Positions 1 to 28,808 of a stretch of DNA of 28,808 nt are shown here, piece by piece. This stretch comes from Escherichia coli (GTDB lineage Bacteria > Pseudomonadota > Gammaproteobacteria > Enterobacterales > Enterobacteriaceae). The DNA lies in the NCBI RefSeq assembly GCF_003334315.1, contig NZ_QOWR01000061.1, one strand, 5' to 3'. Below the pieces are notes generated by a model. The model made no database searches and was not told the origin of the DNA. It was given only the letters and a program-made list of their open reading frames with translations. Position 1 is the stretch's first letter. Each line of letters begins with the position of its first letter. The translations under genes and the position numbers were made by a program.

Positions 1-357
1 GTCGGGGCTAAATCGCGCCAGCGCTGGCTGTTTTACGCGTATGACAGGCTCCGGAAGACGGTTGTTGCGCACGTATTCGGTGAACGCACTATGGCGACGC
101 TGGGGCGTCTTATGAGCCTGCTGTCACCCTTTGACGTGGTGATATGGATGACGGATGGCTGGCCGCTGTATGAATCCCGCCTGAAGGGAAAGCTGCACGT
201 AATCAGCAAGCGATATACGCAGCGAATTGAGCGGCATAACCTGAATCTGAGGCAGCACCTGGCACGGCTGGGACGGAAGTCGCTGTCGTTCTCAAAATCG
301 GTGGAGCTGCATGACAAAGTCATCGGGCATTATCTGAACATAAAACACTATCAATAA
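1..357 (+). CDS. insB: IS1 transposase InsB, C-terminal fragment (5' end outside window)
   Basis: ORF 91..357 plus open upstream frame from base 1; recognised InsB C-terminal sequence; stop TAA at 355..357. Confidence 0.85.
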
Positions 358-372
358 GTTGGAGTCATTACC
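1..372 (+). mobile_element. IS1-family insertion sequence, partial (3' ~370 bp including right terminal inverted repeat; window starts inside the element)
   Basis: Bases 1..357 translate in frame to the C-terminus of IS1 transposase InsB (...[37 protein letters not shown]...NIKHYQ*). Element ends with the IS1 terminal sequence AAGTTGGAGTCATTACC at 372. An inverted copy lies at 28437..28808 (ORF translations identical). Confidence 0.9.
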
Positions 373-859
373 GGCTGCCGGTATCGAACAAATAAAACAT
401 TTTCTGGCGACGGCATTTATTCGCCAACAGCCGGAGCGTTTTTTCTCTGCCCCCGGAAGTTTTCATTATTCGAATGTACGCGGTGAAAGCTGGCAACATA
501 TTACCCGGCAAATTTGTGCGCAATTAGTCGCACAACACCATATTACCGCCGATGAAGCACAACGCATCATCGCCCGCGAAGGCGAAGGTGAAAACCTGAT
601 TGTTAATCGCCTCGCCATCCCACATTGCTGGAGCGAACAGGAGCGACGTTTTCGTGGATTTTTTATTACCCTCGCCCAACCAGTTGAGGTGAATAACGAA
701 GTCATTAACCATGTCTTGATCGCCTGCGCCGCCGCCGATGCGCGTCATGAGCTAAAAATATTTAGCTATCTGGCAAGCATATTGTGTCAGCATCCGGCGG
801 AGATTATTGCCGGGTTAACAGGATATGAGGCATTTATGGAGTTACTTCACAAGGGGTGA
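373..859 (+). pseudogene. frvR: frvR 3' remnant: C-terminal PTS EIIA-type domain of the Frv operon regulator; upstream part replaced by IS1
   Basis: ORF 359..859 starts inside the IS1 end (TTG) and runs in frame into host DNA. Translation has an EIIA-type-2-like motif (NRLAIPHCW) and resembles the FrvR C-terminus. Position next to yiiG matches K-12 gene order. Confidence 0.6.
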
Positions 860-862
860 ACT

Positions 863-887
863 GTGTCGGATGCGCCGCATCCGACAC
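863..887. terminator. GC-rich perfect palindrome between convergent frvR' and yiiG; probable bidirectional terminator or REP-like hairpin
   Basis: GTGTCGGATGCG-C-CGCATCCGACAC, 12-bp arms, sits between the 3' ends of two convergent genes. Confidence 0.4.
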
Positions 888-908
888 TGCATTTATCATC
901 AAAAACGT

Positions 909-26649: not shown

Positions 26650-26750
26650 AACATCCCCTAAGCGATTTTTAAAATCACTGTTTTAAAGGCAATAAGATAC
26701 CGACCATTCATATAGAATGGTTTTATTAACTGCGTATGAGTTAAAACTTA

Positions 26751-27731
26751 TTAGTGGTTCAGAAGATGGTTTGCCTCTTGTTTGATTTGTTGTAGTACGT
26801 TACGCACATGATTTATCTGATTAATTGCATCTTCTTTTTCTTTACGTAACCGCGCATCCAGTAAATGATTTTCTGGTAGGGGTGTTTCACTCATCTGGCG
26901 ATAAGGGATCCACGGATTATCATCTTCGTCTTCAAAGCGGAACGCCGGCGCATAGTAATCAACCTCTTCTTCCAGGCCATATGCCGTCACCTGCGGCTCA
27001 TCATCACCAAGGCAGATAAGGTGCGTTAATAACGCTTTGAACGGCATATCACCCTGACCTGAAATACAGGCTTTATGACCCAGGCCACCCTGTTCTTTAA
27101 CGATCAAGGCATCTTTAATATGGACCTGGGTAATATGCGGTGCCATCGTTTTTAAGGCGTCGATGGGATGCTCATTTGCATTGATCATGTTCGCAAAATC
27201 AAACAGTAAGGAAAGAGACTCCATCTCACTTTCTTTGACCAGCGACACCAGCTCATGACTTTTTAAATCTTCATGCTGCTCAATCGTAAAAGTCAGGCCG
27301 CAGTCCTGATACGTTTCCCGTACATAGGCAATGTCGTTAGCGATAATCGATAATACGTCGCGCAAATTACCTTCATAACGTGGATAAAAACGTACGGACG
27401 ATGCCCCAGTTTTCAACGCGATGGCGACGGCTTCGTCAATAGATGCCTTATCTGAGGCGCTGGTTTCAATATGAATATCAAGGTTCAGACGGCGGGCTTT
27501 ATCTCCAAAGGCAGAGAGTTCTTTATCGTCCATATTACCAAGAGAAAAACGCTCGCCATCCAGAACATGGATTTTGACGCCACGTAGATTATTTTCACTT
27601 GCGATATCAAGTAAATCAGCAGGCAACACTCTTTCCAGCCGCATATTTAAATGAAAGGCATAAGCATGTAAATAAAGAGGAAGAGTGTCGACACGTTGTA
27701 GAATCTTTCTTGCGTTATTTATTGTCATCAT
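26751..27731 (-). CDS. yihM: Xylose-isomerase-like TIM-barrel protein YihM (putative sugar phosphate isomerase/epimerase; function unknown)
   Basis: 326-aa ORF; recognised family by sequence; sits between a regulator and a transporter. Confidence 0.8.
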   Translation of the reverse strand: MMTINNARKILQRVDTLPLYLHAYAFHLNMRLERVLPADLLDIASENNLRGVKIHVLDGERFSLGNMDDKELSAFGDKARRLNLDIHIETSASDKASIDEAVAIALKTGASSVRFYPRYEGNLRDVLSIIANDIAYVRETYQDCGLTFTIEQHEDLKSHELVSLVKESEMESLSLLFDFANMINANEHPIDALKTMAPHITQVHIKDALIVKEQGGLGHKACISGQGDMPFKALLTHLICLGDDEPQVTAYGLEEEVDYYAPAFRFEDEDDNPWIPYRQMSETPLPENHLLDARLRKEKEDAINQINHVRNVLQQIKQEANHLLNH

Positions 27732-27738
27732 AAAACAC

Positions 27739-28395
27739 CTACAGATTAATGATGAGGTCTACGGCCTCAAATCGCCAATATTCAATATCTATCTGGACAA
27801 TATTGCCTTGCTGGTCGGCGCGATGCTTTTCAATTAAGATCGCTGGCATACCCGCAGAACCGCCAAGATACTTGCTGATATCGCCCGGCATTCTGACGGG
27901 TTTGAAAATCAATTTTTTTACTACCGTCTCTTTTTGGTAGCACTTTTCCCAGACTGCAGAAAATGAGTGGTTTTCAAGTTGTTCAATAAAACCCGGAGCA
28001 ACTTCAGGATTAATATATGTTTCGTGATAGAAAACTTTATGTCCTTCCAGCGCCCCCCAGCCGGTGATGCGATAGAGTTCAGTTGATGATGTCACTGCAA
28101 TCAGTGGCGCGAGCGTCTCGGGAATATCGCTGGTACGGCTTTTCTCGGTAAACCCCCAGGAAGGTTCCCGCCCTTGCTCAATTGCGGCCCGCTGAAAGCT
28201 CGCCGACAGCTCCGGACTGTAATTAAATCGCGGCTGGGTCACGAACCACCCCTTACGATCCTTACGGAAGATTTTGGATTCTGCCTCGAGGTTCAACAAC
28301 GCCTGGCGCAGCGTCATACGTTTAATGCCCAGCAGTTCTCCCAGCTCTCTTTCTGAAGGGAGTTTTCCACCCGGCGTGGTGATGCCATCTTTCAA
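27739..28395 (-). CDS. yihL: GntR/HutC-family regulator YihL, 5'-truncated by IS1 (possible pseudogene)
   Basis: ORF begins at TTG 28395. The frame stays open upstream to the IS1 junction (28436), encoding ...YQSTVENAKEKLDRWLKDGITTPGGKLPSERELGELLGIKRMTLRQAL..., a GntR HTH lacking its first residues and native ATG. C-terminal UTRA-like domain. Confidence 0.6.
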   Translation of the reverse strand: MKDGITTPGGKLPSERELGELLGIKRMTLRQALLNLEAESKIFRKDRKGWFVTQPRFNYSPELSASFQRAAIEQGREPSWGFTEKSRTSDIPETLAPLIAVTSSTELYRITGWGALEGHKVFYHETYINPEVAPGFIEQLENHSFSAVWEKCYQKETVVKKLIFKPVRMPGDISKYLGGSAGMPAILIEKHRADQQGNIVQIDIEYWRFEAVDLIINL

Positions 28396-28436
28396 CCACC
28401 GATCCAGTTTCTCTTTTGCATTTTCTACGGTGGATT

Positions 28437-28808
28437 GGTAATGACTCCAACTTATTGATAGTGTTTTATGTTCAGATAATGCCCGATGACTTTGTCATGC
28501 AGCTCCACCGATTTTGAGAACGACAGCGACTTCCGTCCCAGCCGTGCCAGGTGCTGCCTCAGATTCAGGTTATGCCGCTCAATTCGCTGCGTATATCGCT
28601 TGCTGATTACGTGCAGCTTTCCCTTCAGGCGGGATTCATACAGCGGCCAGCCATCCGTCATCCATATCACCACGTCAAAGGGTGACAGCAGGCTCATAAG
28701 ACGCCCCAGCGTCGCCATAGTGCGTTCACCGAATACGTGCGCAACAACCGTCTTCCGGAGCCTGTCATACGCGTAAAACAGCCAGCGCTGGCGCGATTTA
28801 GCCCCGAC
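28437..28808 (-). mobile_element. IS1-family insertion sequence, partial (right end), inverted relative to the copy at 1..372; window ends inside the element
   Basis: Begins with IS1 terminal sequence GGTAATGACTCCAACTT; ORF 28452..28718 encodes the same InsB C-terminus as ORF 91..357; last ~60 nt are the reverse complement of the first ~60 nt of the window. Confidence 0.9.
28452..28808 (-). CDS. insB: IS1 transposase InsB, C-terminal fragment (5' end outside window)
   Basis: Translation identical to the InsB fragment at the left end. Confidence 0.85.

Follow-up and report, generated by a model that had tools for sequence, protein, structure and literature searches.

Pairs of IS1 copies in either orientation can mobilize the DNA between them, as in Tn9, in which the two copies are direct, and in Tn1681, in which inverted copies surround a heat-stable toxin gene. 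Chromosomal genes also lie between two IS1 copies in Escherichia coli K-12, where IS1B and IS1C, in the same orientation and ~10.7 kb apart, flank argF within the CP4-6 prophage region. Inverted IS copies can in addition be the substrate of chromosomal rearrangement: inversions involving insertion sequences have been documented in E. coli, as have IS-mediated deletions (PMC4173774; PMC5009759), with 19 inversions cited for the E. coli long-term evolution experiment (PMC5009759). Finally, multi-copy insertion sequences complicate short-read assembly, a problem addressed by ISMapper, and contigs commonly end beside them (PMC4558774). The window studied here, a stretch of 28,808 nt of E. coli DNA, can be compared with each of these. 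As in Tn1681, two inverted IS1 copies bracket a segment, but what they enclose is native core genome, 28 kb long and in its native place; as around argF, chromosomal genes lie between two IS1 copies, but here the copies are inverted and 28,064 bp apart. Inverted copies are present as a possible substrate for rearrangement, as in the published E. coli cases, but rearrangements are demonstrated there and none is demonstrated for the window. As in contigs that end in a collapsed insertion sequence, the window stops inside a multi-copy element at both ends, which is also seen in other drafts, in some of them at the same base.

The first 372 nt of the window (1-372, plus strand) and the last 372 nt (28437-28808, minus strand) are exact reverse complements of each other (100% over 372 nt), and this pair is the sole long inverted repeat within the window. 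A perfect repeat of this length cannot be a chance match. Both arms correspond to IS1 positions 397-768, numbered from the left terminal repeat (IRL) with K-12 IS1A as the reference, from which each arm shows a single difference over the 372 nt (444G). Each contains the last 118 codons of insB (at 1-357 in the left copy), whose 118-aa product is on record as PF03400 (DDE_Tnp_IS1); these 118 C-terminal InsB residues and the right terminal repeat (IRR) are what the arms share with K-12 IS1A and IS1B. The terminal repeat, ...GGAGTCATTACC, meets the interior at 372/373 and at 28436/28437, and the right-end repeat ...AAGTTGGAGTCATTACC, located at 350-372 and reverse complemented at 28437-28459, is identical to that of K-12 IS1A. 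The left copy reads toward the interior, its IRR ending at 372, and the second copy, in the opposite orientation, adjoins yihL with its IRR; both stop at the contig end, at the same IS1 coordinate (397). The comparison thus reproduced everything that the original prediction had said about the window ends, namely that they are mutual reverse complements, represent the right-hand part of IS1, have their repeats facing inward and are cut at the same internal position. The allele set 444G, 687C, 704T is that of neither K-12 IS1A nor K-12 IS1B, and the 372 nt match exactly an IS1 copy of strain HZ13.

Between the two insertions, the window consists of ordinary E. coli chromosomal DNA, its interior without gaps or rearrangement. 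The interior (373-28436; 28,064 bp) forms a single ungapped alignment with positions 7001-35064 of the reference sequence L001, from strain 2018-01-1CC, with 5 mismatches (99.98% identity). The inner boundaries fall in the native neighbor genes frvR and yihL, and the spacing is 28,064 bp in the window and in the reference alike. Of the complete E. coli genomes, 3871 of 5426 have 80% or more of the first 25 kb together in one place. Many genomes of commensal and animal E. coli match the interior at ~100% identity, and Shigella was rejected as the source on this ground.

We consider it likely, at a probability of roughly 0.85, that the window is one complete short-read draft contig of the E. coli chromosome and that its symmetric truncation was made by the assembly and not by the genome. 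The sequence ends at both cut points, and no join of truncated IS1 to other DNA is seen. The E. coli genomes with any match have a median of 10 and a maximum of 66 matching places, overwhelmingly IS1 copies, and a partial InsB product beginning at the first base of the window is recorded in 1055 blocks. Of the 10 places read, seven are contigs from different NCBI assemblies whose first base is exactly IS1 397, while an eighth starts at 396, and the genes beside these eight contig starts are unrelated (lamB-like, selO, flhDC, and others). The remaining two are scaffolds that resume at IS1 397 past an N gap, with the left part of IS1 on the other side of the gap. The original prediction had proposed either a composite transposon or invertible segment or else a contig ending at a collapsed IS1. 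The second reading is the one supported here, with the sequence ending at the cuts, other contigs starting there and a polymorphic site at 396, whereas the first is a formal possibility only, as the genes are in native order and the unit was found nowhere else in the collections searched. We infer that the window is the whole contig and that both IS1 copies are full length, and their outer flanks are presumably the native ones.

In this kind of assembly, the assembler would walk outward from unique DNA into each IS1 and would stop where the path turns ambiguous. The stop falls on the same base at both ends because the two IS1 copies are identical over the stretch walked, as is expected of a deterministic assembler given identical repeat copies. 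K-12 IS1A differs from IS1B/C at positions 127, 262, 298, 301, 304, 393, 396, 444, and 704, and the window starts one base past the polymorphic site 396 (T in IS1A, C in IS1B). Some IS1 variants are identical across 397-768 but not at 396 (396T/444G in L022; 396C/444G in L047 and L048), and a graph walk into IS1 could become ambiguous at 396, where common variants differ, such that the contig would begin at 397. Other drafts with the same frvR junction stop 53-123 nt into IS1, and overall the other contigs read retain 53-126 nt; the window retains more, 372 nt, which suggests a stop at a variant site and not at a k-mer overlap. That contig ends inside IS1 are assembly ends is solid as a general point; that the stop at 397 was caused by the polymorphism at 396 is only plausible. 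Several break points in other assemblies (292, 323, 385, 464, and 566) adjoin no IS1 polymorphism known to us. Position 397 was also considered as a preferred break point and dropped, as four control positions gave counts of the same order (215-1883 vs 1055 blocks): partial InsB products started at IS1 392-394 in 619 blocks, at 398-400 in 215, at 464-466 in 921 and at 566-568 in 1883, vs 1055 at 395-397. One contig (L025) stops after IS1 base 126, beside the polymorphic site 127; a stop at 126 nt could equally reflect k = 127.

At the left end, the IS1 copy adjoins a 3' remnant of frvR (373-859, plus strand) that runs from inside codon 421 to the stop codon and includes part of the PTS_EIIA_2 domain (the intact gene is at L001 5739-7487), which bears out the expectation that frvR lacks its 5' part here. 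The first nine bases of the remnant, GGCTGCCGG (373-381), would be those duplicated by the insertion. A simple insertion into frvR would leave an outer junction composed of ...ATCATTACGGCTGCCGG and the IS1 left end, and an exact look-up of the predicted reciprocal junction (frvR 5' part, GGCTGCCGG, IRL) matched 3 contigs from other assemblies, one of them L025 with its stop after IS1 base 126. Given this reciprocal junction with its 9-bp duplication, frvR::IS1 appears to have begun as a simple insertion. The frvR::IS1 junction itself is present in 11 public contigs, and it appears to be the older of the two insertions because it is common to other strains. The same junction is carried by CBDFSD010000034.1, a contig 48 kb long and 99.98% identical over 10.6 kb, which apparently runs through yihL without an IS1, as judged from its 48-kb extent only. 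It is also shared by two lineages that are 1.2% apart, which do not differ in the first 812 bp past the junction, although SNP-free stretches as long or longer occur elsewhere in the alignment; the shared junction may reflect common descent or an insertion hot spot.

The missing 5' part of frvR may also have had a fate that the original prediction, which placed it beyond one or the other IS1, overlooked. In the enterotoxigenic E. coli (ETEC) CP024978.1 (strain identity from PMC5824013), an identical IS1-frvR junction has a truncated rhaR/S-like gene on its outside, without a target duplication, as left by an IS1-linked deletion. Strain HZ13 has, at a nearby site, rhaM followed by IS1 and the 3' part of frvR, and deletions beside IS1 are common (PMC5009759). 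The left IS1 of the window could accordingly mark an IS1-associated deletion by which the genome has lost the frvR 5' part and perhaps frvXBA and the rha genes as well. We regard this as unlikely, since the deletion is borne by contigs of a lineage that diverges from the window by 1.2% (with a yiiG of 346 aa), and for the contigs most similar to the window (99.9-100% identity) there is an equal number of contigs with the reciprocal junction of frvR 5' part, duplication and IRL.

At the right end, yihL (27739-28436, minus strand; L001 34367-35077) lacks its first 13 nt, including the start codon, as the interior ends at L001 35064. The nine bases next to the IS1, CGGTGGATT (28428-28436), are the predicted target duplication, from the position of the junction and the 8-9 bp reported for IS1 (PMC5009759). 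A simple insertion would leave, on the outer side, the reverse complement of the IS1 left end followed by CGGTGGATT and GATTCTCCGCC. A megablast of both junctions found no yihL::IS1 junction in the 5426 complete E. coli genomes, and exact scans of the GTDB representative genomes, IMG/VR and the JGI metagenomes gave no match to the right junction. Nor did it appear when the yihL remnant was looked up as an exact match in each of three possible gene-call forms (218, 192, and 241 aa), or when the frvR remnant was looked up again together with a short flank. The yihL insertion thus appears to be recent and private to the source strain, and the two insertions are most likely independent events.

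With both insertions real, the 28-kb segment could since have been inverted by homologous recombination between the two IS1 copies, in which case the left IS1 would be followed outward by the bipA side and the right IS1 by the frvR 5' side. The substrates for such an event are present, as the two identical 372-nt stretches are in inverted orientation, and complete copies would offer 768 bp each. Recombination of this kind, between inverted IS copies, alters no IS-flank junction (PMC5009759); all four junctions would stay unchanged, and nothing in the window therefore argues against it. Positive evidence, however, is nil, and recombination between IS copies, at 4.5e-5 per genome per generation, is about tenfold rarer than insertion, at 3.5e-4 (PMC5009759), so that inverted IS pairs should for the most part be unrearranged. 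In addition, the apparently recent and private origin of yihL::IS1 leaves little time for a later event. We hence consider it improbable that the fdo/sulfoquinovose segment is inverted in the source strain or occurs in both orientations in its population. If it were so, the operons would be flipped relative to replication and would lie next to different neighbors, which would be hidden from short-read data, as short-read junctions and target duplications cannot show whether a segment between inverted IS copies has flipped. For this reason the refutation suggested in the original prediction, by matching target duplications, needs correction: such duplications on separate contigs are compatible with an inversion, because recombination between inverted copies leaves the junctions as they were, and only sequence spanning the whole of an IS1 decides.

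That the two IS1 copies and the 28 kb between them form a composite transposon, which moved or still moves as a unit, is suggested by the bracketing of the segment and by the ability of IS1 pairs to mobilize DNA, yet we find it hardly credible. The cargo is core chromosome, and its boundaries lie in native neighbors at native spacing. In a composite transposon, one would expect the cargo to be away from its native site or the unit to be present at several locations. The interior keeps the order of the reference chromosome, and searches of the GTDB representatives, IMG/VR, the JGI metagenomes and 5426 complete E. coli genomes found no second location for an IS1-segment-IS1 unit; the window, which ends inside both IS1 copies, shows no outer target duplication. 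At least one strain apparently has frvR::IS1 but not the yihL junction, as judged from the extent of its contig, and the yihL junction was absent from every other genome, plasmid-bearing assembly and metagenome that was searched. Chandler, Clerget and Galas reportedly found in 1982 that transposition of IS1-flanked units declines steeply with length, and the unit in the window is far longer than any IS1 transposon known to us. There is no sign that the segment has transposed. Finally, there is next to no probability that the truncation is real and that the genome contains the two IS1 copies as remnants of 372 bp: the sole point for this is that no IS1 upstream of 397 is visible, whereas two independent cuts at one base would be very unlikely, the sequence ends at 397 instead of joining other DNA, and many unrelated assemblies have contigs ending at that base or scaffolds that resume there past N gaps.

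Read as a draft contig ending in two IS1 insertions, the window is an ordinary case of little biological weight. Both frvR and yihL encode regulators of sugar loci that are poorly understood, and their disruption by IS1 is routine in lineages of E. coli rich in this element. Its use is rather in the reading of other sequences, as perfect terminal repeats at the ends of a window, inverted or direct, can be the two halves of a collapsed IS at contig ends.

The gene content of the interior was obtained by transferring the names from the annotated strain 2018-01-1CC (window coordinate = L001 coordinate - 6628). At 99.98% identity, this transfer confirmed that the segment carries fdoGHI-fdhE and the sulfoquinovose cluster, as had been predicted. 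Downstream of the frvR remnant are yiiG (909-1964) and fdhD (2117-2950), both on the minus strand, followed on the plus strand by fdoG (3144-6194), fdoH (6207-7109), fdoI (7106-7741), and fdhE (7738-8667). The genes yiiF, yiiE, fabY, dtd, yihY, and yihX occupy 8997-13413 on the minus strand. The sulfoquinovose cluster extends over 13512-25293, with csqR and yihV on the minus strand and yihU, yihT, yihS, yihR, yihQ, yihP, yihO, and ompL on the plus strand, and yihN (25384-26649) and yihM (26751-27731), both on the minus strand, separate it from yihL. The five SNPs relative to strain 2018-01-1CC are in yihU, yihR (two), yihP, and yihO. The fdoG gene includes an in-frame TGA selenocysteine codon at 3729-3731, within a SECIS element at 3726-3784 that was the only match in an Rfam scan of the window (SECIS_3, 80.6 bits).

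The window begins and ends with 372 bases that are exact reverse complements of each other and form its sole long inverted repeat. When aligned to the IS1 copies of complete genomes, with the K-12 IS1A as reference, both arms correspond to IS1 positions 397–768 (numbered from the left terminal repeat, IRL, of the 768-bp element), with a single difference from IS1A, 444G. Each arm carries the final 118 insB codons and terminates in the right terminal repeat (IRR, ...AAGTTGGAGTCATTACC), which directly abuts the interior at 372/373 and 28436/28437. This alignment bears out the original prediction of two IS1 right ends, with IRR facing inward and the same IS1 cut coordinate.

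For a contig beginning at window base 1, gene calling would yield a partial InsB product, and this product is recorded across the public collection in 1055 blocks. Among the 10 places read, seven contigs, each from a different NCBI draft assembly, begin exactly at IS1 base 397 and one contig begins at base 396, with unrelated genes flanking all eight; the remaining two are scaffolds that resume at IS1 397 after an N gap, the left part of the IS1 lying across the gap. Contig ends or scaffold gaps were observed at many IS1 coordinates (loci L010, L011, L025, L044, L047, L048, and L054–L058 of other public assemblies), and multi-copy insertion sequences complicate short-read assembly (PMC4558774). 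Because contigs end everywhere in IS1, and a deterministic assembler treats identical copies alike, the symmetry is explained by that alone. With both ends stopping in IS1 and other drafts beginning at the same base, the evidence supports the view, already raised as an alternative, that the contig ends at a collapsed IS1, and the window is an ordinary IS1-bounded contig of a kind already well known.

As for the exact coordinate, a graph-based assembler proceeding from unique DNA into IS1 would halt one base past the first site varying among the copies. From this reasoning, a polymorphism at 396 was predicted before any IS1 variant data were seen. K-12 IS1A and IS1B/C differ at positions 127, 262, 298, 301, 304, 393, 396, 444, and 704, and the difference at 396 between IS1A and IS1B bears out the prediction. 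Natural variants that differ at 396 and are identical over 397–768 also occur (strain HZ13, 396T/444G; L047 and L048, 396C/444G), and further break points lie beside polymorphic sites: 126/127 (L025), 261/262 (L010), 392/393 (L054), and 393/394 (L047, L048). The 126-nt stop of L025 could alternatively be an effect of k = 127. The break points 292, 323, 385, 464, and 566 adjoin none of the recognized variants, and stops at 464 and 566 are very common among the contig ends of other assemblies. A special preference for 397 was not borne out, as control products from other IS1 starts were equally common (392–394, 398–400, 464–466, and 566–568, with 619, 215, 921, and 1883 blocks, respectively, against 1055 for 395–397). 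The polymorphism at 396 thus offers a plausible, though unproven, explanation of where exactly the sequence stops.

Between the IS1 copies, window positions 373–28436 align as a single ungapped block with positions 7001–35064 of the collinear chromosome stretch of E. coli 2018-01-1CC, with five mismatches; the lone BLAST "gap" was an over-extension into the IS1 end. The spacing of the insertion points is 28,064 bp in both sequences, and neither foreign cargo nor internal rearrangement was found in the interior relative to this reference. Among the 5426 complete E. coli genomes, 3871 contain 80% or more of the initial 25 kb in one place, many at ~100% identity. According to the annotation transferred from the reference genome, the order is the 3′ part of frvR, yiiG, and fdhD, then fdoG, fdoH, fdoI, and fdhE, followed by yiiF, yiiE, fabY, dtd, yihY, and yihX, by csqR, yihV, yihU, yihT, yihS, yihR, yihQ, yihP, yihO, and ompL, and finally by yihN, yihM, and yihL without its first 13 nt. 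In a plain ORF list, fdoG (3144–6194) is split by an in-frame TGA at 3729–3731, but the Rfam element SECIS_3 at 3726–3784 (80.6 bits) identifies this as a normal selenocysteine codon rather than a pseudogene. Between yiiE and fabY (window ~10052–10168; reference stretch 16680–16796), a short, partial pseudogene labelled hypothetical is also annotated in the reference.

In frvR, which has 582 codons, the left IS1 falls within codon 421. Its junction with frvR occurs identically in 11 public contigs, the draft contigs among them halting 53–123 nt into IS1. The reciprocal junction, predicted for a simple insertion to give a 430-residue product (FrvR 1–423 and a continuation of the frame into the left end of IS1), was detected by exact look-up in three contigs, where it reads ...ATCATTAC GGCTGCCGG / GGTGATGCTGCC... 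and includes the 9-bp duplication, in agreement with the 8–9 bp target duplication of IS1 (PMC5009759). The frvR insertion therefore started as an ordinary IS1 insertion. A deletion linked to IS1 on the frvR side is an unlikely alternative suggested by the porcine ETEC genome CP024978.1 (PMC5824013), which has the same inner junction (9247–10030 of its locus) and, on the outer side, a truncated rhaR/S-like gene with no duplication, indicating that its rha-frv region was deleted. Over the 9.8 kb past the junction, this lineage and that of the window differ by 1.2%, the first 812 bp being identical, and the junction has the same base and orientation in both backgrounds (window 365–381; L002, which is CP024978.1, L004, L005, L039, and L042). 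Immediately upstream of the insertion point, the target sequence reads ATCATTAC, in which 7 bases of the IS1 terminus GTCATTACC recur. One junction in two lineages could reflect a hot spot or shared descent, and the 812-bp identity favors neither. In CP024978.1, three IS1 copies lie within 15 kb (5481–6248 in kdgT, 9247–10014 at the rhaR/S-frvR deletion junction, and 19463–20230 between yiiE and fabY), and they differ from each other at 100, 262, and 444, so IS1 is polymorphic inside one natural strain.

The right IS1 takes away the start codon of yihL. Its junction with yihL is absent from the 5426 complete E. coli genomes and was not found in the GTDB representative genomes, IMG/VR, the JGI metagenomes, or by exact protein look-ups. 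In two metagenome contigs (L008 and L009), an apparently intact yihL is called from an internal TTG (218 aa; the annotated form has 236 aa), so an exact look-up with the 218-aa form retrieves intact rather than IS1-disrupted yihL. The 48-kb contig CBDFSD010000034.1 shares the frvR junction and matches 10.6 kb of the window at 99.98% identity; it apparently has no second IS1, judging solely from its length, which would take it well past yihL. The simplest history is that of two independent insertions, the one in frvR being older and the one in yihL private to the source strain. As IS1 tends to insert close to a copy already present (PMC5009759), one may speculate about a local hop.

Any IS1 pair can in principle mobilize the intervening DNA, and an inverted pair can recombine and flip it. 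The inverted copies make the predicted invertible segment formally possible; no sign that a flip occurred was observed, and we consider an inverted 28-kb segment in the source genome improbable. Recombination between inverted insertion sequences neither makes nor loses an IS-flank junction (PMC5009759), so a flip would be invisible even in the full contig set of a draft, and the proposed test by target duplications is valid only from sequence spanning a whole IS1. The composite transposon of the original prediction found no support: the interior is core genome with native boundaries, the unit was seen in none of the collections searched, and the frvR and yihL insertions are distributed differently among strains, making transposition of IS1-28 kb-IS1 as a whole extremely improbable. 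Equally hard to credit are two remnants genuinely truncated in the genome at one coordinate, as the window stops at both cut points and has no junction of a truncated IS1 to other DNA.

Other IS1 insertions nearby, in complete E. coli genomes, are independent of those in the window. HZ13 has an IS1 in frvR ~146 bp further upstream, with the whole stretch back to rhaM lost; in VTB97420v a simple insertion lies ~174 bp upstream, and in 162.2 an IS1 separates yiiG from fdhD. The duck strains BL12, GS04, and BHD6 carry ~777 bp extra within the 25-kb stretch, presumed to be IS1.
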